From the NCBI GenBank assembly GCA_021202555.1, contig JAJQCT010000032.1:66299-130298 (forward strand): 64,000 nt of DNA, read 5' to 3'. This document shows, piece by piece, positions 2,971 through 43,504 of this stretch. Under the pieces are notes generated by a model. That model had not been told where the DNA came from. It worked only from the letters and a program-made list of their open reading frames with translations, and searched no databases. The stretch comes from Clostridiales bacterium (lineage in GTDB: Bacteria; Bacillota; Clostridia; Oscillospirales; CAG-272). Each line of letters begins with the position of its first letter. The stretch's first letter is position 1. Position numbers and translations under genes: made by a program.

Positions 2971-3099
2971 AAGGAGGAGAAAGTTTGAAAGATAAATCTT
3001 TCAAACTCCTCGTTTTGTGTCTTTCGTCGCACAAAAGGCAGTGCGACGAAAGACACAATTCCGAACGAAAGGAAGCTTTCGCTTACGCGAAAGTCATGG
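2971..3099 (+). repeat. type-3 modular hairpin leader, copy 1 (inverted partner at 11653-11802)
   Basis: Shares about 48 nt on the left (AAGTTTGAAAGATAAATCTTTCAAACTCC.CGTTTTGTGTC) and about 46 nt on the right (GACACAATTCCGAA.GAAAGGAAGCTTTCGC..ACGCGAAAGTCATGG) with the rarA-proximal copy. The central palindrome differs. Confidence 0.85.
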
Positions 3100-3109
3100 T
3101 AATAATTGA

Positions 3110-4426
3110 ATGTACGGTATCGGACCGAGAGAAGAACAGAAAAAGGAAAAACAGATAATAAGGCAGTTTACGCCGCGCTTCGTGACGGTGACGGTTGCTC
3201 TCGTCGCGCTTATTATAATCGGCGTATACTTTGTCGGCGCGGGAATGCGCGCGGACGCGGCAGCGGCGGAATCGACGCTTTCCGACGGAATAATCGAGGT
3301 ATCATATGCTGACGGCGGCACAGGGGCGGTCACATACGGCACCGTCGGCGAGCGGGAGACGGAGACGGATGACGAGGCGGCTTTAATTGACAACAGCCAG
3401 ACCGTAAACCCCGCAGAGGATTTTCTGACAGTATCGCGCATAGCGCAGCGCCTGGCGTCGGCAATTGAAATCGCGGAGGTCACGACCGAAAAGGAAACCG
3501 AGGCTGAAACGACGACAAAGGCGGAAACAACGACCGAAGCGGAGACTACAACAAAAGCCGAAACAACAACAAAAGCGGAGACGACGACCGAAGCCGAAAC
3601 AACCACAAAGGCGGAGACGACGACAGAGACAGCGGATGAGGCATCGGGCGACGATGCGTCGGATGAGGTCAGCTCGACTGTGACCTCCTCATCAACGACG
3701 ACGCAGGGCAACGTCTACATAGACGGCACGCTTGCCGCGTCATTCTGCGCAATATATATCGACTCGACCGCATACGTTCCCGTTGACAGCTTCGTTGAAG
3801 CGATTGATTCGGACGCAACGGCATCGTGGAGCGGAGCTAAGACGATTGAAATATCGGCAAACGGTCTTTACGCGACGGTAACGAGCGGGAATATTTACAT
3901 AACGGCGAACGACAGAGCGCTGCCCTGCTACGGCACGGTGTACATATCAGACGGGATAATGTGGGCGCCGGTGAGCGTGCTTGCTAAGATGTTCTCATCG
4001 ACCGTCACAACGAGCGGAAACGACGTCTATGTCGGCGCGAAGGGAGATTATCTTGCCTCGGCGGACGAATTTTACGACGAGGACGATTTATATTACCTCT
4101 CGCACATAATCGGCGCGGAGAGCGGCTCCGAATCGTTTGAGGGAAAGCTCGCAGTCGCGGCGGTCATAATGAACCGCGTTGACAGCTCGAAATTCCCGAA
4201 CACGATTTACGGGGTACTGACGCAGGCGGGGCAGTTCACGCCTATGTCTACCGGCTCATACAAGAAAACGCCGAACACCGCGAGCGTAATCGCGGCGAAA
4301 ATGACGCTTGAGGGCTATAGATACGACACAAAGCCCCTTTACTTCTCGGGAGATTACGAGTCGGGATGGATTTCATCGGGGCACACATACCTATACAAAA
4401 TAGGCTCGCACTATTTTTACTCGTAA
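3110..4426 (+). CDS. membrane-anchored SleB/CwlJ-type cell-wall hydrolase with Thr/Glu repeat linker and copper-amine-oxidase-N-like stalk domain
   Basis: N-terminal TM segment (VTVALVALIIIGVYFVGAG). AETTT[KE] repeats. C-terminal Hydrolase_2-like block (GKLAVAAVIMNRVDSSKFPNTIYGVLTQAGQFTP). Confidence 0.75.
   Translation: MYGIGPREEQKKEKQIIRQFTPRFVTVTVALVALIIIGVYFVGAGMRADAAAAESTLSDGIIEVSYADGGTGAVTYGTVGERETETDDEAALIDNSQTVNPAEDFLTVSRIAQRLASAIEIAEVTTEKETEAETTTKAETTTEAETTTKAETTTKAETTTEAETTTKAETTTETADEASGDDASDEVSSTVTSSSTTTQGNVYIDGTLAASFCAIYIDSTAYVPVDSFVEAIDSDATASWSGAKTIEISANGLYATVTSGNIYITANDRALPCYGTVYISDGIMWAPVSVLAKMFSSTVTTSGNDVYVGAKGDYLASADEFYDEDDLYYLSHIIGAESGSESFEGKLAVAAVIMNRVDSSKFPNTIYGVLTQAGQFTPMSTGSYKKTPNTASVIAAKMTLEGYRYDTKPLYFSGDYESGWISSGHTYLYKIGSHYFYS
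3503..3628 (+). repeat. in-frame 18-nt tandem repeat, about 7 units, encoding AETTT[K/E]
   Basis: Read from translation residues 132-173 of the 3110 ORF and from the nucleotide periodicity. Confidence 0.9.
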
Positions 4427-6350: not shown

Positions 6351-8657
6351 TTATCTTTTCTTTTTGGATACTCCTGTCACGACGAGCGCCGCACCCGATA
6401 CGATCGCGAGAATCGACAGCGATGCTATCGCATATCCCGTCTGCGGGGATACAGGCTCATCCGGCACGGTTGACGTAGATGCCAATGTATACGCATATGA
6501 TACGGTTGAAAGATTGACATTTTCACCTGTGAGGTGAACTGTCAGGTCAGCGTCCTCAAATTCCGCCACATACGCATTTGCCGTGAACATCTTGCCGCCG
6601 CACTGACATATAATTGTGATATTCGCGCCGTCCTTTTCAACCGTTACGGTGCATTCACTGCCCGCCGCCATCGCCGCGTTCCACTCTGCCCATTCGTCCT
6701 CTGTAAGTCCGTCGCCGAACGTGATTGTATCGGATGTGTCCGTCTGATTGGCAATCCAGCCGTAGTTGTCCGCTCTCACCGTCACATAAACGCCGTCGCC
6801 GTTATACACTTCAACGACGAAGTTGTCCCAGTTGTTTGAGCCGCTCGAGGTGTTCGTGAACGAATATGTGAGCGAGAAATCGTCATTGAACGTGAGCGTT
6901 CCGGTTGACGCGCCCGCGAATGTGCTGATTACAACATCGTCTGCCGTGCCCGTTACGGTGCTTGATGTATCAGGAGCGGTGGTGGTGTCGTCCGCTGCTG
7001 TTGTGTCATCGGCGGTGGTTGTATCGTCAGCCGTCGTCGTATCGTCAGCGGTGGTTGTATCATCCGCTGTTGTAGTATCGTCTGCTGTCGTTGTATCATC
7101 AGCCGCTGTGGTGTCGTCGGGTTCATCCGTTCTGACCGTGTACGCTACCCACGTTATAGTTCCGCCGTAATCCTGCAGCATTACGTCGTCCGTCCATGTG
7201 TCGTTGCCCGCGGGATAGTATGCGATAGCGGTAACATTGTAGAACACTTTATCACCTATGCTCGGAGCATCCCCTTCAAAGGTGATTTCCGTCAGACCAC
7301 TGTAACCGAATGCATAATTACCTATAGTTATCACACTGTCGGGTATTACTAAGCTCGTCAGACTCGTGCAATTTCTGAACGCAGAACCGGCTATTTCAGT
7401 TACGCTGTCGGGTATCGTTACATTTGTCAGATTTGAACAATAAGAGAATGCACTATCACCTATCAACGTCAAGCTGTCGGGCAATGATACGCTTGTCAAG
7501 TTTCCACAGATATAAAACTCTCCGATCGACGTAACGCCGTCCTCAATAACAACGCTTTTAACCAGGCTTGCGCCGCCATACCACGGAATGCCTAGGGCAA
7601 GCTCATAGCTGGGAATCTCCCCCTCGCCGCTTATCGTGAGCGTCCCGTCGACAAGCGTCCATGTTAAATCCTTGCCGCAGGAGCCGCTCACAGGGTACGA
7701 CGTCCACGTTATCGACCCGCCGTAATTCTGCATTACATCATCCGTCCATGTGTCGTTGTCCGCGGGATAATAAGCGGTTGCGCAAACGTCATAGAAAGTA
7801 TCCTGTCCAATGCTCGGCGCATCACCTTCAAAGATGATTTCTGTCAGACCTGTGCAGCCGGAGAAAACTTCCCAGCTTATCTCTGTTACACTGGCAGGGA
7901 TTGATATTCTGTATAGGCTTTTGCAGTTAGCGAATGACCACACACTTATGAACGTCACGCTGTCGGGTATTGTTACGTTTGCAAGGCTCGTGCAGCCCTC
8001 GAACGCTTCGCGGAGTATTTTCGTTACGCCGTTGCCGATTGTGGCACTTGTCAGGTTCGAGCATCCAAAGAACGCACTTTCGCTTATCGACATTATGCTG
8101 CCCGGAATTGTTATACCCGTCAGGTTTGTACAGTTGGAAAACGCAGAATTGGCAATGCCGACCGTACCGGATTTTATCGTATAATCGCCGGAAACAACAT
8201 CTTTGTCCGCTGCTATCAGCCAGTTATCAATGTAGAGAACTCCGTCCTCCCAGTTGTTCTCGTCATTATAGTATGCCGTAGTGACGAACACACCGCCGCC
8301 TATCGTTGTTACGCTGTCGGGGATTGTTACACTCGTGAGGCTTGTGCAGTCGTAAAACGCATTACTCCCTATCGTCGCTACACCATCCTCAACGACAACG
8401 CTTGTAATCACGCTTGCACTGTCATACCATGGAGTGTCTCCAGGGAAGTACTCGTTCATCATACCCTCGCCGCTGATGGTAAGCGTACCGTCGCTCGTGA
8501 GTGTCCACGTGAGATTGTCACCATAAGCTCCACACGTGCCGCTGTCGGTGACTGTCGAATCCTCCGCGCTCATGGATAGTGTCGACGCGAAAATTACGCC
8601 GATACACAGTACAAGCGCTAAAGTCAAGCTGAAAATAAGCTTCTTTTTGGTTTTCAT
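6351..8657 (-). CDS. BspA-type leucine-rich-repeat surface protein with sortase sorting signal
   Basis: Signal peptide (MKTKKKLIFSLTLALVLCIGV). Two LRR blocks (repeated IPDSVT.IG..AF..C..L). ADDTTT repeats. C-terminal SPQTG, then a hydrophobic stretch, then KKKR. Start chosen at the second Met, which has a GGAGGG RBS. Confidence 0.8.
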   Translation of the reverse strand: MKTKKKLIFSLTLALVLCIGVIFASTLSMSAEDSTVTDSGTCGAYGDNLTWTLTSDGTLTISGEGMMNEYFPGDTPWYDSASVITSVVVEDGVATIGSNAFYDCTSLTSVTIPDSVTTIGGGVFVTTAYYNDENNWEDGVLYIDNWLIAADKDVVSGDYTIKSGTVGIANSAFSNCTNLTGITIPGSIMSISESAFFGCSNLTSATIGNGVTKILREAFEGCTSLANVTIPDSVTFISVWSFANCKSLYRISIPASVTEISWEVFSGCTGLTEIIFEGDAPSIGQDTFYDVCATAYYPADNDTWTDDVMQNYGGSITWTSYPVSGSCGKDLTWTLVDGTLTISGEGEIPSYELALGIPWYGGASLVKSVVIEDGVTSIGEFYICGNLTSVSLPDSLTLIGDSAFSYCSNLTNVTIPDSVTEIAGSAFRNCTSLTSLVIPDSVITIGNYAFGYSGLTEITFEGDAPSIGDKVFYNVTAIAYYPAGNDTWTDDVMLQDYGGTITWVAYTVRTDEPDDTTAADDTTTADDTTTADDTTTADDTTTADDTTTADDTTAADDTTTAPDTSSTVTGTADDVVISTFAGASTGTLTFNDDFSLTYSFTNTSSGSNNWDNFVVEVYNGDGVYVTVRADNYGWIANQTDTSDTITFGDGLTEDEWAEWNAAMAAGSECTVTVEKDGANITIICQCGGKMFTANAYVAEFEDADLTVHLTGENVNLSTVSYAYTLASTSTVPDEPVSPQTGYAIASLSILAIVSGAALVVTGVSKKKR
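6972..7119 (-). repeat. in-frame 18-nt tandem repeat, about 8 units, encoding ADDTT[T/A]
   Basis: Periodic GTnGTnGTATCGTCAGCn on the + strand; translation DDTTTADDTTTA... Confidence 0.9.
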
Positions 8658-8742
8658 AAAAACCGCCTTTCCCTCCCCGCAGTCTGCGCGGGGAAAATCG
8701 CCTTTCGGCATAAGATTTTATGTGAAATGTTAAAAGAGCTTT

Positions 8743-8770
8743 TCGGTCAAAAAGTATACTTTTTGACCGA
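8743..8770. repeat. 28-bp perfect palindrome TCGGTCAAAAAGTA|TACTTTTTGACCGA
   Basis: Read directly. Part of an approximately 60-bp module that is duplicated at 8872-8932. Confidence 0.9.
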
Positions 8771-8895
8771 TAGCGCCGAATGTCAAAAAGGTAACCGCAG
8801 AGAAAACAAAATGTGAATTTTATGTAAAATACGTGGCGATTGCTTGATTTTTCCGACTTAATCTGCTAAAATATTTTATGTAATGGAAAAGGTGC

Positions 8896-8931
8896 GGCAT
8901 CGGTCAAAAAGTATACTTTTTGACCGATGCC
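8896..8931. repeat. 36-bp perfect palindrome GGCATCGGTCAAAAAGTA|TACTTTTTGACCGATGCC
   Basis: Read directly. Followed by GTTTGCTTTT, so it could also act as a terminator. Confidence 0.9.
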
Positions 8932-9327: not shown

Positions 9328-9484
9328 TATACCGACAACCTCCTTTTCTCTGCCCGCAAGGTAGCTTTCAAGCACATTACGCACGAAATATTCCTCCCTG
9401 CGTGCGCGTCGGACTATTCCGCTCCGCGGAATAGTCCCTACTTTCATTTCTTTGCTCGCTTTGCGGGCAAAGAAATGAATCGTT

Positions 9485-9835
9485 TGGAGGCGAGGGGAAT
9501 CGAACCCCTGTCCGAAAATCTCTCCCTGTGAATTTCTCCGGGCGCATGGCACCGAAAATCTCCCGCCGAGGCACACGATGCCCAAAGCACCTCGGGGAAA
9601 GCGCTTTAATGCGTGACCGCTTCAAGCGCGAAACGGCGGTTCACGTTCACCACAGTCGTGACGCCCGATATGAGGTCGTGGTCCCCCTCATAAAGGACGC
9701 GCCGCACTTAGGCAGCGAGTGCTAATTCTTCGTCGTTAGCAGTTAAAGTTTTAATTGGAGCCGTATTTAAGAACTTGCCCCATGCTCTGCCCGCTTATCA
9801 CCTATCAAAATCCCCGTCGAAACCTTTACGCCCCC
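9485..9835 (-). ncRNA. ssrA: tmRNA (SsrA), tag reading frame ANDEELALAA-stop
   Basis: 5' GGGGGCGTAAAGGTTTCGACGGGG. 3' tRNA-like end GGGGTTCGATTCCCCTCGCCTCCA. Tag GCTAACGACGAAGAATTAGCACTCGCTGCCTAA on the complement of 9708-9740. Lies 7 nt downstream of smpB. Confidence 0.93.
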
Positions 9836-9841
9836 ATTATT

Positions 9842-10330
9842 TCATCCTTTTTCGCTCATGCGCCTTGCACGCTCCATATCGCGCCGCGCCGTTTCAGCCG
9901 CCGCAGCGTCGCGCTTGTCGTAGAGCTTTTTGCCTTTGCAAAGCCCTACCTTCATCTTCACATTCGACCCCGAAAAGTAAAGCGACAGCGGAATTATCGT
10001 CATTCCCTGCTGCGTCACCTTCTCATGAAGCCGCATTATCTCGCGCTTATGCATTAAAAGCTTCTTTTTGCGAAGCGGCTCGCGGTTGTAAATATTCCCG
10101 TTTTCGTATGGGCTTATGTGAAATCCGCAGGCGAATATCTCCCCGTCCTCAATGCGGCAGTATGAATCCTTCAGATTCACCGTCCCCGCGCGAATGCTCT
10201 TGACCTCCGTGCCGAAAAGCTCGATTCCCGCCTCGTATGTGTCGATGATGAAATATTCGTGGCGCGCGGCGCGGTTCTCCGCGATTACCCGCTCGCCGTC
10301 GTTTTTCTTTTTCCCGTCGGACATCGCCAA
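9842..10330 (-). CDS. smpB: SsrA-binding protein
   Basis: NRAARHEYFIIDTYEAGIELFGTEVKSIRAG signature. Adjacent to ssrA. Confidence 0.95.
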   Translation of the reverse strand: MAMSDGKKKNDGERVIAENRAARHEYFIIDTYEAGIELFGTEVKSIRAGTVNLKDSYCRIEDGEIFACGFHISPYENGNIYNREPLRKKKLLMHKREIMRLHEKVTQQGMTIIPLSLYFSGSNVKMKVGLCKGKKLYDKRDAAAAETARRDMERARRMSEKG

Positions 10331-10414: not shown

Positions 10415-11656
10415 TCACGTTTTTTTCTTTATCGCATCCCAGTAAGCCTCGGCGGCGCGCTCCGTTTTGTTGTCGCCGAATCTGTAATATTTCTTGTCCT
10501 TCACGTCGTCGGGCAGATACTGCTGCTCAACCCAGCGATTCGGGAAATCGTGCGGGTATTTGTACCCGTCGAAAAGCGGCGCGTGAAGATGATGCGGCAC
10601 CGTCTGCCCAAGCCCCGCCTCAACGTCCGCCATCGCCGTCTCGACAGCGACACAGGCTGTGTTCGATTTCGGCGCCGTCGCGAGCATAACGGCAGCGTTT
10701 CCGAGCGGAATCTGCGCCTCGGGCATTCCGAGCTGCTTTGCCGCCTCGCAGCATGAATACGTTATCGCCGCCGCCATCGGGTACGCAGCGCCTATATCCT
10801 CGCTCGCAATTACGAGAAGCCGCCTGCATACGGAAAGAATATCGCCGCCCGCGAGAAGCCGAGCCACATAAAACACTGCGGCATCGGGGTCGGAGCCGCG
10901 AATCGATTTCTGCAGCGCCGAGAGCAAATCATAGTGAACGTCACCGTCGCGGTCAAATGAGCCGTATGACGCGGACGAGAGCGCCGCGAACGTCTCGGGC
11001 GTTATCTCCTCCTCGGCAATGTAAAACGCATTTTCAAGCAGCGTTATCCCGTGACGCACGTCCCCTGCCGCAAATGACGCAAGCTTCATAAGTGTGTCGT
11101 CGCTCGCCGTCACCGTCCGTCCCTCCTCGGCGCATAAAAAATCGAGCGCGCGGCGAAGTGCCGGCGCAAGGTCTCTCGGCTCGACGGGCTTGAATTCAAA
11201 GACGCTGCACCGTGAGAGAAGCGCCGAATAAATGGAGTAGTATGGATTTTCCGTCGTCGAGGCGATGAGGGTCACGCGCCCGTCCTCGATATATTCGAGA
11301 AGCGACTGCTGCTGCTTTTTGTTGAAATACTGAATCTCGTCAAGATAAATTAAAATCCCGCCCGCGCCGAATATATCGGAGGTTGATTTGAGCGCGCTTT
11401 TCACGTCGGACAGCGTCGCCGTCGTCGCGTTGAATCTGTAAATCTTCATCTCGGCGTGCTTCGCGACGATTTCGGCTGCGGTCGTCTTTCCCGTGCCCGC
11501 GGGACCCGAGAAAATCATGTTCGTCACGCGCCCCGCATCAATGAGGCGGCGAAGCGCGCCGTGACTTCCCAGAAGATGGCGCTGACCGACCATTTCGTCG
11601 AAGCTTTGGGGACGAACTGCGTCCGCGAGCGAGCGATTTCTCATATTTTTAACCAT
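10415..11656 (-). CDS. rarA: replication-associated recombination protein A (AAA+ ATPase)
   Basis: Walker A GPAGTGKTT. Walker B IYLDEIQYFNK. MgsA C-terminal block (LHAPLFDGYKYPHDFP). Confidence 0.92.
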   Translation of the reverse strand: MVKNMRNRSLADAVRPQSFDEMVGQRHLLGSHGALRRLIDAGRVTNMIFSGPAGTGKTTAAEIVAKHAEMKIYRFNATTATLSDVKSALKSTSDIFGAGGILIYLDEIQYFNKKQQQSLLEYIEDGRVTLIASTTENPYYSIYSALLSRCSVFEFKPVEPRDLAPALRRALDFLCAEEGRTVTASDDTLMKLASFAAGDVRHGITLLENAFYIAEEEITPETFAALSSASYGSFDRDGDVHYDLLSALQKSIRGSDPDAAVFYVARLLAGGDILSVCRRLLVIASEDIGAAYPMAAAITYSCCEAAKQLGMPEAQIPLGNAAVMLATAPKSNTACVAVETAMADVEAGLGQTVPHHLHAPLFDGYKYPHDFPNRWVEQQYLPDDVKDKKYYRFGDNKTERAAEAYWDAIKKKT

Positions 11657-11802
11657 GACTTTCGCGTCAGCGAAAGCTTCCTTTCATTCGGAATTGTGTC
11701 CGATTCCGCTTTGCGGAATCGCTACGTTCCGCGCAGCGGAATCGTTTGCGAAGGACACAAAACGTGGAGTTTGAAAGATTTATCTTTCAAACTTTCCCTC
11801 CT
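11653..11802 (-). repeat. type-3 modular hairpin leader, copy 2, ending at the rarA start codon
   Basis: Its reverse complement matches 2971-3099 in both flanks. The core holds two TTCCGC-N3/4-GCGGAATCG hairpins enclosed by GTGTCC/GGACAC. Confidence 0.85.
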
Positions 11803-11861
11803 TAAAAAATTGCCGTGAACGGAAAAGGCACTGCGGCAATCACCGCAGCACCTTTTCTGTA

Positions 11862-11934
11862 CGCGCCCTAAAGGATTCGAACCTTCGACCTACCGGTTCG
11901 TAGCCGGGCACTCTATCCGCTGAGCTAAGGGCGC
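11862..11934 (-). tRNA. tRNA-Arg (anticodon ACG)
   Basis: Cloverleaf read by hand: acceptor GCGCCCT/AGGGCGC, anticodon loop CUACGAA, T-arm GAAGG-TTCGAAT-CCTTT. CCA is not encoded. Confidence 0.9.
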
Positions 11935-24631: not shown

Positions 24632-24635
24632 TTGA

Positions 24636-24914
24636 GTGAAATCGAGACGGTTGACATCGGTCAACCGTCTCGGATAAATCCGCGCTTCGCGCGGGTAAAA
24701 TCCGTCGCTGACGCGACGGGTTAATGAAAAAAGCCACCTCAACGCTTCGCTTTTGAGATGACTTTTATTCAATTAAAAGTCCGTAGGACTTTTTACCTTA
24801 ACCCGCACAAAGTGCGGATTTCACCGAGTATTCGCCGCAGGCGGATGCTCGATTTCACCTGCCCGAAGGGCAGATTTCACCGTCTCAAAAGCTTTGCTTT
24901 TGAGACGATTTAAC
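24636..24914. repeat. type-1 hairpin array A (9 hairpins on GTGAAATC / GATTTCACC linkers)
   Basis: Linkers at 24636, 24673 and 24695 (GTGAAATC-type) and at 24818, 24851, 24873 and 24907 (GATTTCACC-type). Parsed by hand. Confidence 0.85.
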
Positions 24915-25007
24915 TCCCCGTATTCTTTTCAGCTTGCATAAACGCAAAAAATGAGTTATACTATATATGCGAAAAAGCCATCGCGGAGCATTTCGGAGGA
25001 CAATTAG

Positions 25008-25205
25008 ATGAAAATACGCTACAATGACGACAAGGAAATCGTGCGCCTCGTGAAGGAGGGACTGCGCGAGCGCGGCGGATACTGTCCCTGCCGCCGTGAA
25101 ATATCCGAGGACACAAAATGTATGTGCCGCGAATTCAGAGAGCAGATTGCAGACCCCGAATTTGAAGGCTACTGCCACTGCCGTCTCTACTATAAGGAAA
25201 AATAA
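25008..25205 (+). CDS. small ferredoxin-thioredoxin-reductase catalytic-subunit-like Cys-rich protein
   Basis: CPCR, CMC and CHC cysteine pattern in 65 aa. Lies immediately upstream of thioredoxin. Confidence 0.55.
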   Translation: MKIRYNDDKEIVRLVKEGLRERGGYCPCRREISEDTKCMCREFREQIADPEFEGYCHCRLYYKEK

Positions 25206-25253
25206 CAAAGTCTGAAAGATACATCCTTCAGACTTCAGAAAGGAGAATCGAAA

Positions 25254-25565
25254 ATGGAAGTTATAAAGGTAACAGGCGATACCTTTGAGGAAATTGTAAT
25301 CGGCTCGGACGTGCCCGTGCTTGTCGATTTCTGGGCAACATGGTGCGGTCCCTGCCGCATGATGACGCCCGTAACGGAGGCGCTCGCCGCCGAATCTGAC
25401 GGGAAATACAAAATTTGCTCCGTCAACGTGGACGAGGAGCCCGCTCTTGCCGACCGCTTCGGCGTAAACTCGATACCGATGTTCATATCGTTTTCGGGCG
25501 GCGAGATGAAGGGAAGCACAGTCGGCGTCACGCCTAAGGAGACGCTTCTTACGCTTCTTGCGTGA
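25254..25565 (+). CDS. trxA: thioredoxin
   Basis: WCGPC active site. 103 aa. Confidence 0.93.
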   Translation: MEVIKVTGDTFEEIVIGSDVPVLVDFWATWCGPCRMMTPVTEALAAESDGKYKICSVNVDEEPALADRFGVNSIPMFISFSGGEMKGSTVGVTPKETLLTLLA

Positions 25566-25707
25566 TTTAATCCGAAAATTCACGTTTTTTTGGCGTTTTT
25601 ACCCGCGGGCACTTGAAAATCCTCCGTTTTTGTGATAATATTATAGAGGAAATTTTCATGCCGTGCGGCAAAACGTCCCGCTGACCGGCAAAACCCAAGG
25701 AGAAGTC

Positions 25708-27814: not shown

Positions 27815-28681
27815 ATGAAAAATTCAATGCGCAAATCAGCCGCTGTGTTGATTGTGACGGCACTTATTGCCACACTGCTGTCCTCATGCACGGAAACGAC
27901 GCAATACCCTTTGATTTCCGATTACGAATACTGCGTCGTTTTTCTCAACATCGGCTACGGCGACTGCACAATAATAAAGGCGGGCGGCGACTATTACATG
28001 ATTGACACCGCATCCGCCGACCATGCGCGCGATGTGACGTCATTTCTTGCGGCGGAGGGAATCACGGAGCTGGCAGGGCTGTTCCTCACGCACACGGACA
28101 GCGACCATACGGGCGGGCTGTTCTACGTCTCCGACGTCGTGAAAATCGACTGTATTTACTATCCCTACTATTCCGAGCCTGATGACAAGGGTCAGAATCA
28201 GCTTGAAATGAAGGCGGAAAGCCTCGGCGTTGAGCATTCGGCGCTTTCGGGCGGCGACACTGTTGAAACAGATAATATAACATTTGAAATTCTCGGTCCC
28301 ACGGAATATTACGAGTATGACGACAACGACAATTCGCTCGTCATTCGCGCAGAAATCGACGGAATAGTCTATCTTTTCGCGGGAGATATGCAGTTTTATG
28401 AGGAAAATCTCGTGCTTGCCTCGGGCGCGGACGTATCATGCGATGTGCTGAAGGTGGGCAATCACGGCAACCGTGACGCAACCTCGTCGGAATTTCTGTC
28501 GGCGGCATCGCCGTCAGTCGCGGTGATTTCCGCAAATACGACGGAAAAATCGACATCGGCGTCGCTGCGCGTCACAACCCTTCTCTCCTCCGTCTGCGAT
28601 TATTACGTCACCGAGGACTCGGAATATTGTATAATCACATACAAAAACGAAAGCGGAGAGATAATAGTTGAAGTTGATTGA
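27815..28681 (+). CDS. lipoprotein with ComEC-C-terminal-like metallo-beta-lactamase fold
   Basis: Lipobox LLSSC. HTDSDHTGG motif. NHGN later in the sequence. Confidence 0.65.
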   Translation: MKNSMRKSAAVLIVTALIATLLSSCTETTQYPLISDYEYCVVFLNIGYGDCTIIKAGGDYYMIDTASADHARDVTSFLAAEGITELAGLFLTHTDSDHTGGLFYVSDVVKIDCIYYPYYSEPDDKGQNQLEMKAESLGVEHSALSGGDTVETDNITFEILGPTEYYEYDDNDNSLVIRAEIDGIVYLFAGDMQFYEENLVLASGADVSCDVLKVGNHGNRDATSSEFLSAASPSVAVISANTTEKSTSASLRVTTLLSSVCDYYVTEDSEYCIITYKNESGEIIVEVD

Positions 28682-28719
28682 TTACTTAAGGGGGTATTTT
28701 TGCAAAAATACCCCCTTAA
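28650..28719 (+). repeat. direct repeat DR1 (last 10 codons of the MBL gene plus its terminator palindrome)
   Basis: AAAGCGGAGAGATAATAGTTGAAGTTGATTGATTACTTAAGGGGGTATTTTTGCAAAAATACCCCCTTAA. Repeated at 29284-29352. Confidence 0.9.
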
Positions 28720-28888: not shown

Positions 28889-29266
28889 ATGCGGACATTA
28901 GATGAATATATGGCTTTGCCGTACAAGATGGAAATCGTAGAGGACAAAGAAGACGGCGGATTCGTCGTTTCCTTCCCTGACCTTCCCGGATGCATTACCT
29001 GCGGCGATACAATAGAGCAAGCGCTGTCAAACGCGGAGGATGCGAAAAGGTCGTGGCTTGATGCAGCGCTTGAAGAAGGATACGCGATAAAAGACCCTCA
29101 GGGTCAGGAGGAATATTCGGGACAATTCAAATTGCGTATGCCGCGCAGCCTGCACAAAGCGTTATCGGAGCATTCAAAGCAAGAAGGAATTTCAATGAAT
29201 CAATATTGCGTTTATCTGCTTTCGCGAAACGACGCAATTAACACCGCAACAACAAAGCGAAGCTGA
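28889..29266 (+). CDS. hicB: HicB-family antitoxin (no HicA partner seen)
   Basis: YKMEIVEDKEDGGFVVSFPDLPGCITCGDTIEQALSNAEDA (HicB fold), plus a C-terminal RHH-like RMPRSLHKALSEHSKQEGISMNQY. Confidence 0.8.
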   Translation: MRTLDEYMALPYKMEIVEDKEDGGFVVSFPDLPGCITCGDTIEQALSNAEDAKRSWLDAALEEGYAIKDPQGQEEYSGQFKLRMPRSLHKALSEHSKQEGISMNQYCVYLLSRNDAINTATTKRS

Positions 29267-29283: not shown

Positions 29284-29352
29284 AAAGCGGAGAGACAATA
29301 GTTGAAGTTGATTGATTATTTAGGGGGTGCTTTTTCAAAAGCACCCCCTAAA
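29284..29352 (+). repeat. direct repeat DR2 (copy of DR1)
   Basis: AAAGCGGAGAGACAATAGTTGAAGTTGATTGATTATTTAGGGGGTGCTTTTTCAAAAGCACCCCCTAAA. The hairpin is kept by compensatory changes. Confidence 0.9.
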
Positions 29353-33285: not shown

Positions 33286-33879
33286 TTAATAGGTAGCAGA
33301 GTTAATTCTCCAGATTGTTTCACCGTCGTCATCCTTTTCGCTTGTAATTGTTATCTCAATCACCTCGTCAGCCGTCCCGTCAAGATATGACTGCGCCGTG
33401 AATACGATAAAGCGCGAGGAAAGCGACGTAATCTCCACACTTTCAAGGTCATACGTCCTCTCGTAGCTTACAAGCACCTCCGCCTCCGTGTCAATATAAA
33501 GCCTGTCGCCGTATTCGTAATATCGCGCGTATATAATCGACCCCGTGTCGTCGTCACTGTAGCCCGTCAGATAAATATCGAATATCGACTCGCAGTAATC
33601 GGATGAAAAGACTGCCTCTGTCGCCGTGCGAAGCTCCTCCTCCGTCAGATACGGACTGTCGTCGGAAACGGGCATATATTTGCCCTCGCTCCCGTCGTCA
33701 ATATAGTCCATACCAACGCCAAAATAAATCTCGTTGAGAAGATATGTCCTCGGCAGAAGATTTTCGATAATACCAATCGCCTCGTCCTCCGTCGGCGCCG
33801 CCTCGCATGAAACAAATGAAATCGGAAGCACTGCCGCAAAAACAAGCGCCAAAGCAACAGACAGCGCCTTATTCCTCAT
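33286..33879 (-). CDS. hypothetical lipoprotein
   Basis: Lipobox ISFVSC. Start taken at MRNKALSV. Overlaps the gyrA 3' end by about 11 nt. Confidence 0.55.
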
Positions 33880-36427
33880 CCTCGCCCTCGTCAATTTCGT
33901 CCTCCTCGTATTCATCCGGGTCTATGTCACCGTCATCTGACGCACCGTCATCTGTCGTGACGTCTCCCGGCGTCTCCGTTTCCTCCGCCTCTGCTGCAAT
34001 CTGCGTAAACGACGCGACCCTCGCGCCCTCGCCCGTTTTCATCACGATAACGCCCGAAGCCGACCGTCCCATCACGCCGATTCCGCCGGCTGACGTTCTC
34101 ATTATGATTCCCGTGTCTGAAATAACGATAATGTCGTCCTCATCCGAGATCGAAGCGATTCCTATAAGCTTTCCCGTGCGGCTCGTGAGCTTATGCGAGA
34201 TAACGCCCAAGCCGCCGCGGTGCTTCGTGTCGTAATTTGAAAATTCCGTCCGCTTGCCAAGCCCCTTTTCCGTCAGGGTAAAGAGCGTCTTGCCCTCCTC
34301 GACGACGGCGGCGCCCGCTACGTGCTCGCCATCTGAAAGCTTGATTGCGCGCACGCCCATCGCGGTGCGTCCCTGCGGTCGAATCGTGCGCTCCGCAAAT
34401 CTCACGGCGCGTCCGTTTTCACCTGCGACGATAATTTCGCGCTCTCCGTCCGTTACCTTGACGAAAATAAGCTCGTCGTCGCCCTCAAACGAAATCGCGC
34501 GCTTGCCGCCGCGCCTCTGATACTCAAATTCCGTGAGCGGCGTGCGCTTGATTTTGCCGTTTTTCGTCACCATCGTGAGATAAAGCCCCTTCACGAAGCC
34601 GTCAACGGCTACAATCGCCGTGAGCTTCTCGCCCGGCTCCGTCTCGATGATGTTCGCGATGTTCGTTCCCTTTGAGGTGCGCCCCGCCTCGGGTATCTGA
34701 TACGCCTTTTTCATGTAGACGCGCCCTTTGTCGGTGAACATCAGAATATAGCTGTGGCTGTCAACGGAGATAACGCGCTCGATGAAATCCTCCTCGCTCT
34801 TCGTCGTGCCGATAATGCCCTTGCCGCCGCGCCGCTGCGCCGAATATACGTCGGAGCGCTGACGCTTTACATATCCCTCGTGCGTAATCGTGATAATGCA
34901 GTTGTGGCGGTCGATTAAATCCTCAATCATAATCTCGTTTTCGACAGGAACAATCTCCGTGCGCCTTGCGTCCGCGTATTTCTGCTTTATCGCGAGCATT
35001 TCCTCCTTGATAAGCGCCTTCAGCTTCTCCTCGTCGGAGAGAATGCCGACAAGCCGCTCGATTTCCTCGTAAAGCGCCGCGAGCCGCGCCTCGATTTTCT
35101 CGCGCTCAAGACCCGAAAGCCGCCCGAGCGTCATTTCAACAATCGCCTGCGTCTGAACGTCGTCAAGCCCGAATCTCGCGCCGAGCTTTGCCTTCGCGTC
35201 GGGAATCGATGCCGAGCCCTTGATTATCTCGATTACCTCGTCGATATTGTCAATCGCAATCTTGTAGCCCTCGTAAATATGCGCCTCGCGCCTTGCCTTT
35301 TCAAGCTCAAACTTGAGACGGCGCGTGACGACCTCCTCCTGATGGCGTATATGCTCGCCGAGCATATCGCGAAGGGAGCAGGTTTTCGGCTCCCCGCCTA
35401 CAAGAGCTACCATGTTGACTGCAAACGTGTCCTGAAGCTGCGTATATTTGAAAAGCTGATTTAAAAGTATCTGCGGGTTCACATCGCGCCTGTATTCGAC
35501 GACGATTCTCATTCCGCCTCGCCCCGACTCGTCGCGAAGCCCCGTGATTCCGTCAACTCGCTTATCCTTTACAAGATTCGCAATCGATTCGACAAGAACG
35601 GATTTGTTGACGGCATACGGAATTTCCGTCGCGATGATTCTGCGGTGCTCCTCGTCAATCTCCGTTTTTGAGCGCACGGTGATATGACCCTTTCCCGTCA
35701 TATACGCCTCGTAAATGCCCGCCGTGCCGTATATAGTCGCTCCCGTCGGGAAATCGGGACCCTTTATATAGCGCATAAGCTCATCAAGCGTCGCCTCGGG
35801 ATTGTCCATCATGTAAATTTCCGCGTCGATTGCCTCGCCGAGGTTGTGCGGCGGAATATTTGTAGCCATACCGACAGCAATTCCGACGGAGCCGTTGACG
35901 AGCAGATTCGGTATTCTCGACGGCAAAACGACAGGCTCCTTCAGCCTGTTGTCAAAGTTCGGTCTGAAATCGACGACATCCTTTTCAATGTCCGCCATCA
36001 TCTCGTTGGCGATTTTTGACATTCTCGCCTCCGTGTAACGGTAAGCAGCGGGCGGGTCGCCGTCAACGGAGCCGAAGTTGCCGTTTCCGTCAATCAAGGG
36101 ATAGCGGTATGAGAACGGCTGCGCCATTCTCACCATCGCCTGATAGACGGAGGAATCTCCGTGCGGATGATACCGACCGAGAACATTACCGACCGTCGTC
36201 GCCGATTTGCGGTACGCCTTGTCGTATGTCAGCCTGTCCTCGTACATCGCGTAAAGTATTCGCCTCTGCGACGGCTTCATTCCGTCCCTTATATCGGGAA
36301 GCGCGCGCGCCGTGATTACCGACATCGAATACGCGATGAAGGATTTTTTTACTTCATCGTGCATTCCGACGTCAATAATCTTCTGGTCGGGAAACTCTAT
36401 ATCCTTTATCTCTTCCTCATGCTTCAT
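33869..36427 (-). CDS. gyrA: DNA gyrase subunit A
   Basis: [25 protein letters not shown]; catalytic Tyr in AAYRYTE. Acidic tail. Confidence 0.97.
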
Positions 36428-36473
36428 AAATATCAATCATTCCTTTTGCAAGTATTATATAGGGCAGTGAATC

Positions 36474-36553
36474 GTGAATATTTTTCACCAATCTATGATT
36501 TGGTGAAAAATATTCACCAACTTTAAGAATGAATCTACGATTCATTCTTAAAG

Positions 36554-36555
<2 letters not shown>
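36474..36555. repeat. type-2 double nested palindrome, copy a (right arm overlaps the gyrB stop codon)
   Basis: GTGAATATTTTTCACCAATC-tat-GATTTGGTGAAAAATATTCAC, then AACTTTAAGAATGAATC-tac-GATTCATTCTTAAAGTT. Confidence 0.85.
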
Positions 36556-38581
<2,026 letters not shown>

Positions 38582-38857
38582 TCAGTACTCATAATTTCCG
38601 GCGGACGCGCTTTTTGTCCGCGCGGCGACGGTGACTGACATCAGCTCCGAGAGCGTAACCATGTCGTCCCCCGTCAGAATAAAGCTTTTCGGCAGCTCAT
38701 GCGTCAGAACAATAAGCCTGCCCTCACTCTGGCTTTTATTAAGAAAATCCTTCGTCGTCCCCGACACGGTCGCGCTGTCCATGTCGAAAATTCCGATTAT
38801 ATCGGGAGAAAATATAAGCCTTCCCCCGCCCGCGTGTACATATGCCATAAAGTTCAC
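38582..38857 (-). CDS. DUF370 / RemB(YaaB)-like small protein
   Basis: Conserved recF-(DUF370)-gyrB position. IIGIFDMD motif. GTG start overlaps the recF stop; the ATG at 38848 is an alternative. Confidence 0.7.
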   Translation of the reverse strand: MNFMAYVHAGGGRLIFSPDIIGIFDMDSATVSGTTKDFLNKSQSEGRLIVLTHELPKSFILTGDDMVTLSELMSVTVAARTKSASAGNYEY

Positions 38858-39981
38858 CTCGCGCAGCTTTCCTTGGCGCTCCCGTCCTTGATGTAATATT
38901 TCCTTCCGTTCGGTATTCGCCTTGACGCGGAAAGGTCGCAGGCTGTTATAATCACCTGCCGCTCGCCAAGCCCCGAGGCGACAAACGAGCGCCTTTGCGG
39001 GTCAAGCTCCGAGAGCACGTCGTCAAAAAGAAACACGGGATATTCCCCCGTCCGCCTTCGCGAGCATTCCCCCTCAGCAAGCTTCATCGAAAGCACAATT
39101 CCTCTTTCCTGCCCCTGCGACGCGAATGATTTCGCCTCGCGCCCGTCAAGCGTAATCTCAATATCGTCCTTGTGCGTCCCGTACTGCGTCGAGCCTAAAA
39201 TTATCTCACGCTCCGTGTTTTCCGTGAGAAGCGACGAGTAAATTTTCCTTATGCGCGCCTCGTCCCTGTATTCGCCGCCAAGCCGCGAACACCCGCGGTA
39301 TGAAAGCCCGAGCGTCTCCGCCCCGCCCGTCATATCGGAATATATCTCACCTGACGCCAAAGCGAGCGAATCTATATATTCGCACCTTTCGACCGTGATT
39401 TTCGCGGCAAGCTCTGCGAGCTGCTCAGACCATGCCTCCAGCAGCAGCCGTCTGTCGCCTCCCTCGCGCGCCCTTTTAAGCTCCGCGTTCCTTCCGAAAA
39501 GCACCTTATTGTAGCGCTGAAGCGTCCTCATGTAAAGCGGCTTAAGCTGCGATATTGCCACGTCGACAAACGCGCGCCTCTCGGACGGCGAGCCCTTCAC
39601 GATAAAAAGATGCTCGGGACAGAAAAGAACTGCCCTGAAGCTCCCTATAAGCTCGGATAACCTTTCAAGCTTTACACCGTTTTTTGAAATTTGCTTCCGC
39701 TTCCCGCCTCCGAAATTCCCGATCTGCATTATGAGCGTGTTCTCGCTCCCGCCGCTCTCGTAAACGATTCTGACAAGCGCATAATCCGAGCCGAATCTCA
39801 CCATTTCCTCGTCATGGACAGCTCTCATGCTTTTTCCCTGCGCGAAAAGGTAAATTCCTTCGAGCATATTCGTCTTTCCCTGCGCGTTTTTTCCGAAAAG
39901 AATCGTCGATGTCGGAGAAAAATCGAGCCGCGCGCTCTCTATGTTGCGAAAATCAGTATATTCGGCGCTTTTAATTATCAT
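38854..39981 (-). CDS. recF: DNA replication and repair protein RecF
   Basis: Walker A GKNAQGKTN. Signature GQERGIVLSMKLAE. Walker B FLFDDVLSELD. Confidence 0.95.
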   Translation of the reverse strand: MIIKSAEYTDFRNIESARLDFSPTSTILFGKNAQGKTNMLEGIYLFAQGKSMRAVHDEEMVRFGSDYALVRIVYESGGSENTLIMQIGNFGGGKRKQISKNGVKLERLSELIGSFRAVLFCPEHLFIVKGSPSERRAFVDVAISQLKPLYMRTLQRYNKVLFGRNAELKRAREGGDRRLLLEAWSEQLAELAAKITVERCEYIDSLALASGEIYSDMTGGAETLGLSYRGCSRLGGEYRDEARIRKIYSSLLTENTEREIILGSTQYGTHKDDIEITLDGREAKSFASQGQERGIVLSMKLAEGECSRRRTGEYPVFLFDDVLSELDPQRRSFVASGLGERQVIITACDLSASRRIPNGRKYYIKDGSAKESCAR

Positions 39982-40021
39982 CTGTCATTTCTTTTTGTAT
40001 CTTCATTTTCCTCACTTACAG

Positions 40022-40380
40022 GTTTGAAATCTTCACTTCCATCGCTATCCGACTTTATAGCTTGAAAGATTCCATCTTTCAAGCTGTGAAGTCGATAGGT
40101 TGCAAGTTTGAAATTTTTCAAACTTGCAATCCTGTATAGTCGTCAGGTTTGAAAGATGGAAAAATTTATTTTTCCGTCTTTCAAATCCTATGCTGTCGGT
40201 TCCGCGAAGCGGAATCGCCGTCTTACTTTCTGACGGCGAAGACAGCAGCGAATCAACCGCCTATTCAACCTTTGCTGTTGTTTCCGCGAAGCGGAATCGT
40301 CGTCTTACTTTTTGACGACGAAAACAGCAAAGTTGACAGTTTTGTAATTTTGAAAAATTCTTTTTCAAAATTACAAAACT
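40022..40380. repeat. about 360-bp field of nested hairpins between recF and dnaN, including a tandem pair of three-way-junction-like units
   Basis: Hairpins at 40059-40085, 40100-40129, 40146-40188 and 40338-40380. Units at 40192-40246 and 40274-40328. All parsed by hand. Confidence 0.85.
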
Positions 40381-41527
40381 ATTCCTTCATTCTCACGGGC
40401 ATCATGAAGAATACGAAATCTCCCTCGTCCTCATCGCTCTTTTCGTCCGCGCTCGTTATCGAAATTCCCATAAGCGGCGTGGACAGCCCTATATGAAGCG
40501 TCTTTGCGTCGGTTGCCGCAACGGCGTCGAGCAGGAATCTGCAATTGAAGCCGATTTTAATGTCGTCGCCCTGCTTTTTAATCGGAATCTCGTCGTAAAC
40601 CGAGCCGGAAACGCCGTCGGAGGTTATGATAAGCCTGTCGTCCTCAAAGGAAAGTTTGACGTATCCGCGGGCAGACCCCGCCTTTTCCTCAATCATCAGA
40701 TTCGCTCTTTCAAGCGACGCGCCGAACTGACCGCGGTCAATCTCGACCGAAATCATATGCGACTTCGGCAAAATCCTTTCGTAGTCTATATATGTGCCGT
40801 CAATCAGGCGCGAGAAGAATATAATGTCCCCGACTGTGAATATTACGTGCTTTAATGTCAGGGAGACTGTCATCATGTCCTCCGTATCAGCGACGCGGCG
40901 TGAAAGCTCCGTGAGAGTCGTCCCCGGAACTATAAACGAAACATCAGTCTCGCCGACACCGTGGGCGTTTGAAATCTCGCACCTTGAAACGCATTTTGAA
41001 AGCCTGTTTGCGTCGCATGAAACGACAGTTATCTCGCCGCTTGAAATTTTGAAATACGCGCCCGTGAATATGGGACGCTGATCCTTTGCCGCTATCGCAA
41101 AGCGCGTCATCTCAATAAAGCGCTTCATCACGTGCTGCGGAATATCAAATCCCGTCTCGCCCGAAAGGACGGGCAGCGACGGAAAATCCGACCCCGGAAG
41201 CGCATGAAGCTCAAAGCAGCTCTTGCCGCTCGTAATTTTCACATTCATTCTGTCATTTACGGTCAGAAGCAGCTCTCCCGACGGAATCGTTTTGATAATC
41301 GAGTAGAATTTCTGCGCGTTTATAATATAGCTGCCCGGCTCAATGACCTCGCATTCAAGTGACGTTCTGATTCCCTTTTCAGTGTCATAGCCCGTAATGA
41401 CGCATACTCCGTCCTTTGCCTCAAAGAGCAGTCCCTCAATAGCCTGTATCGTGCTTTTTGACGAGACAGCTCCGAGAGCGGGTGTTACTGCCGCTATAAG
41501 CGGCTCCTTTTCAAATCTTACCTTCAT
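40379..41527 (-). CDS. dnaN: DNA polymerase III beta sliding clamp
   Basis: 382 aa with three-domain clamp pattern. Position downstream of dnaA. Confidence 0.95.
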   Translation of the reverse strand: MKVRFEKEPLIAAVTPALGAVSSKSTIQAIEGLLFEAKDGVCVITGYDTEKGIRTSLECEVIEPGSYIINAQKFYSIIKTIPSGELLLTVNDRMNVKITSGKSCFELHALPGSDFPSLPVLSGETGFDIPQHVMKRFIEMTRFAIAAKDQRPIFTGAYFKISSGEITVVSCDANRLSKCVSRCEISNAHGVGETDVSFIVPGTTLTELSRRVADTEDMMTVSLTLKHVIFTVGDIIFFSRLIDGTYIDYERILPKSHMISVEIDRGQFGASLERANLMIEEKAGSARGYVKLSFEDDRLIITSDGVSGSVYDEIPIKKQGDDIKIGFNCRFLLDAVAATDAKTLHIGLSTPLMGISITSADEKSDEDEGDFVFFMMPVRMKE

Positions 41528-43450: not shown

Positions 43451-43504
43451 AATATCATACCCTTACCGTATTTTTTATTTAAGCGCAATGCGCGAATATT
43501 CAAC

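Follow-up and report, generated by a model that had tools for sequence, protein, structure and literature searches.

Why should two genes with nothing in common begin behind almost the same folded leader? The question is raised by a 64,000-nt stretch of a Clostridiales genome (contig JAJQCT010000032.1; "the window" below means this whole stretch), in which one structured element stands directly before a gene for a cell-wall hydrolase (Pfam Hydrolase_2 and Cu_amine_oxidN1; 3110-4426, plus strand) and again before rarA, encoding a MgsA/RarA ATPase (Pfam; 10415-11644, minus strand). An earlier note on this DNA saw here either a shared device acting on translation or a mobile repeat that had landed by chance. 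The evidence points to both at once, a mobile cassette always found at start codons. We consider the two leaders to be, probably, copies of an undescribed, modular, folded cassette of Clostridia-type phages and their hosts, which lies between the Shine-Dalgarno sequence (SD) and the start codon of a gene and carries an SD of its own.

Copy 1 covers about 130 nt (2980-3109, plus strand), from the AAAG before its first hairpin, P1, through the base before the hydrolase ATG. Copy 2 covers about 150 nt (11645-11796, minus strand) and ends at the native rarA start (11644-11642). That two similar structured leaders stand in the same orientation to unrelated genes is borne out: the 30-mer AAAGTTTGAAAGATAAATCTTTCAAACTCC of the first block and the 31-mer GACACAATTCCGAANGAAAGGAAGCTTTCGC of the second each occur exactly twice in the window, none of 100 shuffles gave any block match, and none is expected by chance. 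In both copies the first block reads AAGGAGG, 1-2 nt, AAAG, P1 and then CTCC-N-CGTTTTGTGTC, and the second reads GACACAATTCCGAA-N-GAAAGGAAG, a hairpin P4 (GCTTTCGC-N4-GCGAAAGT) and then CATGGT. These end blocks are near-identical and the centres between them unrelated. As the note had described, the centre of copy 1 (3015-3058) is a single hairpin, whose perfect 18-bp helix (z -9.25 for the core) replaces a three-way junction, and that of copy 2 (11694-11760) is closed by GTGTC/GACAC around two TTCCGC..GCGGAA hairpins (GATTCCGC-NNN-GCGGAA(TC)); in both, the base TTGTGTC/GACACAA forms helix P2. Compared with shuffled sequence, both copies fold strongly (z -8.7 for copy 1 and -6.2 for copy 2).

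The remaining parts correspond one to one. Folding places P1 at 2983-3006 in copy 1 (GTTTGAAAGA-TAAA-TCTTTCAAAC, with a TTG at 2985 in the 5′ arm) and at 11769-11792 in copy 2. The internal SD, GAAAGGAAG, lies at 3067-3075 and 11677-11685, and in copy 1 its GGAA can pair with TTCC at 3059-3062 as a weak helix P3. P4 follows between the internal SD and the spacer, at 3075-3094 (GCTTTCGC-TTAC-GCGAAAGT) and 11658-11677 (GCTTTCGC-TGAC-GCGAAAGT). The spacer of copy 1 (3096-3109, ATGGTAATAATTGA) is 2 nt longer than the usual 12, and that of copy 2 occupies 11645-11656 (ATGGTTAAAAAT); each contains a non-native ATG.

Transcription signals lie outside the element: a good promoter is predicted upstream of copy 1 (2834-2862), copy 2 stands behind a tRNA promoter, and a promoter scan of the element itself found none. 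A scan flagged P1 followed by CGTTTTG as an intrinsic terminator, which we consider weak for its A/T-rich stem and its short, offset T run. Two RNAs, the tmRNA (9484-9835) and one tRNA (11862-11934), are all that Rfam recognizes in the window at gathering thresholds, and E-value mode, run on copy 1 and on one phage copy (L074), gave noise far below the cut-offs, so that no known class fits at either threshold. Across 13 element-bearing loci the sole gathering-threshold match was an unrelated pemK RNA motif about 1 kb away (RF02913, 60 bits; viral contig L106, 6644-6724, plus strand).

The leaders belong to a family of about 25 copies, 95-165 nt long: the two in the window, two in another Clostridia metagenome-assembled genome (MAG) and about 20 in IMG/VR viral contigs. 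The other two chromosomal copies came from an exact-pattern scan of 185,579 species genomes and lie in one MAG (CAZXAU01; 43% G+C vs 52% for the window), one before a lipoprotein-like gene and the other separating the two genes of a response regulator and its histidine kinase; relative to the window copies they show compensatory changes in P1 and P2. A first covariance model (R1), built from four copies and combined with pattern scans of IMG/VR, gave the viral copies, and a second (R2), built from 23 copies, gained one more. Copy 1, aligned with copy 2 and with loci L002 and L003, scores 152 bits under R1 and 93 bits under R2, and copy 2 has a covariance-model score of 160.6 bits.

The element-bearing IMG/VR contigs are real phages or prophages, in which the genes flanking the element encode tail and minor tail proteins, a head-tail adaptor, a Mu-like transposase and large serine integrases. 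Several contigs hold two copies (L106, L060 and L056, and L062 together with L100); in L106 both precede a large serine recombinase gene, and the pemK motif lies upstream of one of them. The cassette is thus shared between phages and two hosts of different G+C content, and the genes that it precedes (tail protein, head-tail adaptor, Mu-like transposase, serine integrases, RarA, hydrolase, lipoprotein, kinase) are mutually unrelated. Searches with blastn of GenBank phages and PLSDB plasmids gave no real match. Several candidates were discarded: 17 loci from a JGI metagenome scan with CAATTCCGAANGAAAGGAAG, all chance matches and none with an adjacent P4; a Melainabacteria match in the genome scan, a chance hit inside an ORF (open reading frame); 65 loci from a viral scan with GAAAGGAATGGTNATAA, which, beyond two known contigs, had no element at the matched site; and L111, a genuine lipoprotein gene starting MKNKFF. 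In a Logan assembly of the same strain (SRR15221328), contigs break exactly on the 30-nt block 1 (L026 1-31, L027 4382-4412). Since the repeat breaks short-read contigs, element counts based on MAGs will be underestimates.

From 5′ to 3′ all copies share one plan: a pre-existing SD, P1, a three-way junction, the internal SD, a spacer and the downstream start codon. An SD-like run (GGAG, GAGG, AAGG or GGTG) lies 2-5 nt before P1 in almost all copies. P1 is A/U-rich, 10-11 bp long and conserved in sequence (TTTGAAAGAT-AAA-TCTTTCAAA), its top being fixed as TGAAARAT-AAA-TYTTTCA and its base covarying. The junction, in which P2 encloses P2a and P2b, keeps its shape and not its sequence. P2 differs greatly between copies (GAGTTTTGC/GCAAAACTC, GGAATTGGTGGC/GCCACCAATTTCC, GCTATTTGTTCC/GGAACAAATAGC), P2a is variable and often CTTTCGG...CCGAAA, and P2b reads AAT-TTTTGC-NNN-GCAAAA-CC, with the variants TTTGGC/GCCAAA, TTTCGC/GCGAAA, TCCCGC/GCGGGA and TTCCGC/GCGGAA. 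The internal SD, (A)GAAAGGA, is conserved in nearly all copies directly 5′ of the spacer ATGGTNATAANN, which is A/T-rich, conserved before unrelated genes and abuts the downstream ATG. Every copy found lies in sense orientation to an ORF that starts right after the spacer, an orientation with a chance probability of about 3e-8 in about 25 copies, and the consistent position relative to start codons by which the earlier note wished to tell a device from a chance landing is therefore present throughout the family. About two thirds of the phage copies have the SD-like run at the end of the preceding ORF, with the stop codon of that ORF within -15 to +8 nt of P1.

The helices covary. Of 20 cores, 13 fold by themselves into the P2/P2a/P2b junction (z -2.3 to -7), and in the alignment of 23 copies 94.7% of cells are paired, compared with 77.5% in shuffled alignments; none of 500 shuffles reaches the observed values, and sliding the partners lowers pairing to 59% or less. 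Double changes occur at 25 of the 29 pairs, nine of ten P1 pairs are compensatory, and all seven P2 pairs covary. Even paralogues on one contig differ by compensatory changes (GAAGAATT/AATTCTTC in L106a vs GAGGAATT/AATTCCTC in L106b, and likewise in L062/L100). This pattern of substitution indicates that the helices are under selection.

The clean empty site is that of rarA, for which we retrieved RarA homologues and read their loci for presence or absence of the element, which is missing from close relatives. In GCA_021199195.1 (L024), whose RarA is 99% identical, the tRNA, a terminator-like hairpin and ...GGCAAATTTTTAAGGAGG are kept, TTAGAT-ATGAGAAATCGC follows, and about 150 nt are absent, so that the site reads ...TTTTTAAGGAGGTTAGATATGAGAAAT. 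A second relative (L022; RarA 89% identical) is also empty (GGAGG-AGACATC-ATGAGAAAT). Because both relatives are empty, absence is the parsimonious ancestral state, and on this comparison copy 2 is an insertion and not a leader that evolved in place. The empty sites also mean that copy 2 was placed exactly between the SD and the start codon, and that the AAGGAGG at its 5′ edge (11797-11803), which the earlier note had counted into the repeat, is the native SD of rarA, found in the same place in L024. By analogy, the AAGGAGG on the left flank of copy 1 (2971-2977) is presumably the pre-existing SD of the hydrolase gene. Set side by side, the empty AAGGAGG-TTAGAT-ATG and the filled AAGGAGG-[GAAAGT...TTAAAAAT]-ATG have no duplicated flank. 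By eye, the native rarA start region and the left end of the element match at about 16 of 23 positions.

At lower resolution, phages give the same picture. Local tblastx of the flanks against all fetched loci revealed four related siphophage modules (L046, L074, L102 and L045) that carry the element at different gene junctions. L046 is filled (GGAGGTGAAGGATAA[AGTTTG...GGTCATAATC]ATGGAAAAC) where L074 reads GGAGGTGAAGGATAATGG, a stop/start overlap, and L102 reads GGAGGAGGGCTGATTATGGAAAAC. At a second junction the element is present in L074, and L046 has instead a spacer of 31 nt that contains its own GGAGGG; at a third it is present in L102, and L045 reads TAA-AAGGAGTGATCATATAT-ATG. No target duplication was seen at the L046/L074 junction, where divergence means that small ones are not fully excluded. 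For copy 1, a search for hydrolase orthologues with an empty site scored nothing, low-complexity words having probably swamped the candidates, and exact look-ups of the neighbouring proteins returned only the same strain; the hydrolase protein itself is called identically in two Logan assemblies. Tandem 18-nt coding repeats that resemble low-complexity linkers occur in the hydrolase gene (3497-3622) and in a leucine-rich-repeat (LRR) protein gene (6963-7124), and probably explain the failure of this word search.

One further rarA locus deserves description, although neither covariance model matches it and it was not counted as a member. In L028, from a biogas-fermenter metagenome (RarA orthologue P0034, 69% identical), about 95 nt (9990-10096, plus strand) separate a GGTGGAGG SD from the conserved ATGATG start of rarA. 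The stretch holds small hairpins with a faint resemblance to the element (GGTTTTGT, GCGAAAGC), and gene callers take it for an extended N-terminus of a 444-aa protein. A decayed insertion at the same kind of site, or an unrelated one, could explain it.

If the cassette parts a gene from its SD, what would the ribosome use instead? In copies with no extra hairpin the internal SD touches the spacer (AGAAAGGA, then ATGGTCATAATC, then ATG). P4 lies exactly at this joint only in the subfamily made up of the window copies, L002, L003 and L040; hairpins of another kind stand there in L062 and L155, and most phage copies have none. P4, with 8 bp and a 3-4 nt loop directly after the SD GAAAGGAA, is predicted in all four copies that bear it. 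The earlier note's picture of an SD followed by a hairpin spanning the spacer is thereby upheld and refined: in relatives that lack P4, (A)GAAAGGA abuts ATGGTNATAANN-ATG, and P4 is inserted there. P4 thus looks like an added module in the SD-to-start spacer whose folding would restore the original geometry, the distance with P4 folded still being about 12-14 nt. The SD itself, GAAAGGAAG, has 7-8 bases complementary to CCUCCUUUCU, which we take to be the 3′ end of a Bacillus subtilis-type 16S rRNA.

We infer that the true starts are 3110 for the hydrolase and 11644 for rarA, and not the ATG within the spacer. In copy 2 the spacer ATG (11656-11654), which had been taken for the rarA start, is in frame and precedes the second ATG by 12 nt. 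The second is the native start because relatives without the element start there, and it fits the 409-aa protein of the closest relative (P0001); RarA would have 413 aa from the spacer ATG and 409 aa from the second, and exact look-ups found neither of these two forms on record. In copy 1 the upstream ATG occupies 3096-3098, and not 3097 as first given, and opens the 20-codon ORF already noticed, which ends at 3158; the hydrolase ATG lies 14 nt downstream and out of frame. The start at 3110 stands, and the claim that it has no ribosome-binding site (RBS) does not, as GAAAGGAAG at 3067-3075 would serve it with P4 looped out.

These observations suggest the following course of events. Insertion would separate the old SD from the start codon, and the downstream gene would then be translated from the internal SD of the cassette; in the subfamily found in the window, the added P4 would fold and bring that SD back to a workable distance from the start. 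Phages would act as the vehicle. The fold of P1 and the junction could serve mobility as single-stranded DNA, could make the insert a compact or insulating part of the mRNA, or could be a site for a nuclease or binding protein. Recombination via RBS-like microhomology is one candidate route of movement, and a single-strand-DNA enzyme that recognizes hairpins is another. Both ends resemble gene starts, the left with an SD, about 6 nt and TTG AAA GAT, and the right with an SD, the spacer and ATG. In compact phage genomes the position rule could arise from survivorship alone; the four chromosomal copies had room elsewhere upstream of their genes, which argues for real targeting. The boldest version, which we put forward as a doubtful possibility, is a new class of mobile element that targets the SD-start interval, with both ends mimicking a gene start, its own RBS keeping the gene expressed, phages shuttling it between distant Clostridia, and P1 and the junction as an enzyme recognition fold. 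More soberly, the element is an undescribed, phage-associated, start-linked cassette within the small interspersed repeats, and its mechanism is not yet demonstrably new.

Several points weigh against the proposal of a mobile cassette. The copies were found through element-specific patterns (P1, P2b and block 2), so that degenerate or differently placed copies may be missed, and the covariation alignment was fitted to the model's own structure, which favours that structure. The native rarA spacer TTAGAT is intact on neither side of copy 2, which resembles a replacement more than a clean insertion and leaves the exact ends undefined. Three of the four filled/empty comparisons involve diverged phages (flanks 37-77% identical in translation), in which gain and loss are indistinguishable. 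Pfam searches of about 50 ORFs found no transposase or other mobility gene in the window, and neither a target-site duplication nor a terminal inverted repeat was seen at the element. Initiation at the second ATG from the internal SD is a prediction from sequence, and in copy 1 the spacer ATG at 3096, out of frame and with an overlapping 20-codon ORF, could harm hydrolase expression.

The alternative that fares best concerns movement and is compatible with the cassette as we describe it. A non-autonomous single-stranded-DNA transposon, of the palindrome-associated transposable element (PATE) type derived from IS200/IS605 or of the repetitive extragenic palindrome (REP)/RAYT type, would use the hairpins as enzyme sites on one strand; a short target would set the single orientation of insertion, and the terminal SD and spacer would have been selected as making insertions survivable. 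The lack of terminal inverted repeats and of target duplications, the identical orientation of all copies and, in the window subfamily, hairpins near both ends (P1 and P4) agree with it. So does the lower folding energy of the complementary strand in 17 of 20 cores, together with A-C mismatches that become G-T wobbles on that strand (L106b, L073 and L102), but this strand difference vanishes once base composition is allowed for (mean z -4.45 vs -4.67), and G-U pairs occur on the sense strand too. One transposase normally binds similar end hairpins, whereas P1 (GTTTGAAAGAT/ATCTTTCAAAC) and P4 (GCTTTCGC/GCGAAAG) are unlike and most copies lack P4. No Y1 transposase is among the approximately 50 ORFs searched with Pfam in the window, and the window holds its two copies in a single replichore but on opposite strands. 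The flanks share only an SD-like run and ATG: the top-strand flank is an SD-like run plus 1-3 variable bases and the bottom-strand flank NCAT, both too unspecific to account for where the element sits, and at rarA the native spacer gave way to the insert and was not simply split. We hold such a transposon to be unlikely.

That the element is an RNA module which processes or stabilizes messages to the benefit of the phage is likewise improbable. It would provide a nuclease site (for example for RNase III) or 5′ protection and would spread by phage recombination; its purine-rich SD would hold a ribosome, shield the downstream message and uncouple the gene from its upstream neighbour. In phages, the element does lie between genes that overlap or abut in element-free relatives (TAATG; TGATTATG), its fold is kept by compensatory change after duplication, and the 18-bp helix of copy 1 is perfect. 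The RNase III sites reported as conserved between early genes of phage SP82, and the STAB-SD sequence GAAAGGAGG of cryIIIA, offer functional leads for such a module. This account leaves unexplained the recent gain before a chromosomal rarA, between strains with 99% identical RarA, and the fixed placement after a pre-existing SD, and P1, being A/U-rich, offers just 10-11 bp.

We give very little weight to a vertically inherited cis-regulatory leader, riboswitch-like or protein-binding, that answers a shared signal and has been lost from the relatives. A covarying conserved fold with an SD directly after it would suit such a leader, and a possible switch is offered by the TTTCC that follows P2, which has two potential partners, an upstream GGAAA and the GGAA within the SD. 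Yet the orthologous rarA leaders of the 99% and 89% relatives are without the element, the end blocks are near-identical within one genome around unrelated centres, the genes that follow it are unrelated to one another, the junction that holds the element varies among related phages, and no Rfam class matches.

In the note's proposal of a shared translational control or upstream-ORF device, the link to starts holds in all of the approximately 25 copies, and the upstream ORF, whose ends are unrelated, is unlikely. A conserved small protein or leader peptide was rejected, there being no conserved ORF in the copies; in L002 an open frame upstream of the gene passes through the element, and some P1 ORFs run into the downstream gene. 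A leader-peptide device starting at the TTG, GTG or CTG of P1 (MKDKSF...) or at the spacer ATG is scarcely credible: although a good SD stands 5-8 nt before the codon that begins the P1 5′ arm in almost all copies, and the spacer ATG is in frame and 12 nt from the main ATG in five of the first seven copies examined, neither the length nor the frame nor the end point of the P1 ORF is conserved (5 to >76 codons, ending arbitrarily), a search of 5.8 billion predicted proteins with the element translation (HNSERKEAFA...) gave no candidates, and the spacer ATG abuts the SD without spacing in hairpin-less copies and is absent from L073, L084, L085 and L102.

Modules related to the element occur elsewhere in the window. 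The dnaN-recF spacer (39990-40390, minus strand; dnaN ends at about 40379 and the recF ATG is at about 39981), about 400 nt with no ORF, has covariance-model matches of 32-52 bits (repeat family D15) and is without the SD/spacer block. Its first part is a long P1-like hairpin, after which come a tandem pair of junction modules that are 89% alike, TTCCGC-TTC-GCGGAA occurring in each, and finally a further three P1-like hairpins, of which AGCTTGAAAGAT-gga-ATCTTTCAAGCT is one. Either a structured RNA in its own right or an accumulation of modules could account for it. A solo P1-like hairpin (25210-25233, plus strand; 22.7 bits; repeat family D11) reads GTCTGAAAGATACATCCTTCAGAC and then AGAAAGGAG, ahead of the ATG at 25254 of a thioredoxin gene (WCGPC motif). 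In this leader GTCTGAAAGATACATCCTTCAGAC is followed directly by TTCAGAAAGGAG-AATCGAAA-ATG, and the hairpin may be a minimal member consisting of P1 plus an SD. A longer ORF on the opposite strand of the thioredoxin locus (24885-25583) has no Pfam match and looks spurious.

Other repeats in the window have their own structure. Two intervals between convergent genes (24632-24884 and 57615-57933) hold arrays of short G+C-rich hairpins, all with different stems and a conserved linker: in the left half G(T/A)(G/A)AAATC and then a hairpin, in the right half the mirror image, a hairpin and then GATTTCACC, with 4-5 units per half. They look like arrays in the style of REPs or bacterial interspersed mosaic elements (BIMEs). 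A three-copy intergenic family (36509-36562, 52488-52541 and 52597-52650), one copy of which lies between gyrA and gyrB, consists of AATATTCAYCAACTT and, after it, a hairpin of which TTGCAGAATGAATC-tgc-GATTCATTCTGCAA is an example. Identical, perfect 29-nt palindromes TCGGTCAAAAAGTATACTTTTTGACCGAT lie 157 nt apart (8743-8771 and 8900-8928) in the spacer that follows the LRR-protein gene (6351-8711). Direct repeats of 57 nt that are 86% identical (28650-28706 and 29284-29340) flank a HicB-like antitoxin gene (28889-29266) and may be the boundaries of a small toxin-antitoxin cassette that was inserted. The chromosomal origin region (33869-43867) comprises gyrA and gyrB (assigned by position and size), recF (weak SMC_N Pfam match), dnaN and dnaA (by position), a 417-nt spacer and then a cluster of small plus-strand ORFs, with the oriC region in the neighbourhood of 41.5-43.9 kb; a parA gene and a pair of parB genes are found at 18.3-21.1 kb.

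Small interspersed repeats commonly pass for intergenic clutter whose influence on adjacent genes is loose, and this one obeys a strict rule in every copy found. At least one of its insertions is recent and clean, the one into the core gene rarA. Its practical consequences concern annotation and assembly. Starts beside the element are easily miscalled, as with the two lengths of RarA, the hydrolase seemingly without an RBS and the read-through frame of L002, and the repeat fragments contigs. For phage biology, the cassette appears to exchange the translational coupling of neighbouring genes for an independent structured RBS. By a common sequence it connects uncultivated gut or digester-type phages with hosts. 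Should the placement stem from targeting and not from survivorship, targets would be chosen in a way new to mobile elements, in which the RBS, a landmark common to all genes, is the target of transposition or recombination, and the element would be a natural "portable RBS with insulator".

How does the element compare with known systems? Integron attC sites are single imperfect palindromes with R″/R′ cores (RYYYAAC...GTTRRRY) and lie 3′ of the cassette ORF. The ends of the element do not pair together, it consists of a hairpin and a three-way junction, and it sits before a core chromosomal gene. With MITEs (transposable elements of the miniature inverted-repeat kind), PATEs, REPs and REPINs it shares a short, non-coding, multi-copy, hairpin-rich make-up (95-165 nt, about 25 copies, no conserved ORF) and presence or absence among close relatives, and with PATEs and REPs the fixed orientation and the lack of terminal inverted repeats and target duplications. 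Classical MITEs have both of the latter, whereas here the ends (AAAGTTTGAAAG... and ...GAAAGGAATGGTCATAA) are not reverse complements by reading, no search for terminal inverted repeats having been run, and duplications are missing at rarA and at the L046/L074 junction. Unlike all of these, the element has dissimilar end hairpins and no partner transposase identified by Pfam among the window ORFs, its position is set by the SD-to-start spacer and not by a target word, and it carries a working-looking RBS.

Genes 38 and 25 of phage T4 reportedly have a split RBS, whose SD and AUG stand too far apart along the linear sequence until a stable hairpin between them closes the gap. The window subfamily resembles this precisely in P4: the SD (3067-3075) is followed by P4 (3075-3094) and then by the spacer, and in hairpin-less relatives SD and spacer are adjacent. 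The likeness covers P4 only and derives from comparison and folding, and the function is a predicted one. PeSL cassettes of T4-like phages join a terminator stem-loop to an early promoter (PMC4122927). These too are conserved composite regulatory motifs at phage gene boundaries, and they are believed to spread and to promote the shuffling of modules through recombination (PMC4122927). Our element, in contrast, has no detectable promoter, and its conserved functional-looking piece is an SD.

By construction the nearest relatives are the BOX elements of Streptococcus pneumoniae, built of the modules boxA, boxB(n) and boxC, which can affect neighbouring genes and even supply start codons (PMC3049150). 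Like BOX elements and BIMEs, the element is small, intergenic and strongly folded, with conserved end modules, a variable middle and strain-variable sets of copies (PMC3049150). Its modularity is plain in the near-identical ends around unrelated centres and in the extra hairpins at one joint (L062, L155 and the window subfamily), and, as with BOX, its modules also occur alone or recombined, as in the dnaN-recF spacer. BOX elements have terminal inverted repeats, take either orientation and are scattered through intergenic regions (PMC3049150). Our element, in contrast, has no such repeats, is always in sense, abuts the start codon, carries an SD and is largely phage-borne. We know of no BOX sequence that it resembles; the likeness is one of construction, drawn from descriptions and not from aligned sequences.

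By placement the nearest are the start-associated sequences (SAS) and extended SAS (ESAS) of Cluster K mycobacteriophages, repeats in one orientation a few bases upstream of the starts of unrelated genes (PMC3203893). SAS is a 13-bp sequence, GGGATAGGAGCCC, that lies 3-7 bp before the start, includes an SD core and often overlaps the upstream stop; about half have an inverted repeat just upstream, and the ESAS repeats do not covary as RNA (PMC3203893). Its function is unknown and thought to be in translation initiation, its authors having favoured a DNA-binding protein (PMC3203893). The element is likewise phage-borne, of single orientation, placed before the starts of unrelated genes and equipped with an SD. 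Its start-proximal block is (A)GAAAGGA plus ATGGTNATAANN and not GGGATAGGAGCCC, and unlike SAS it runs to 95-165 nt, has covarying helices and a three-way junction, belongs to Firmicutes-type phages and to host chromosomes, and has empty sites. The element is therefore closest to BOX-type repeats in how it is built and to SAS in where it sits, and stands apart from both in architecture and from SAS in sequence.

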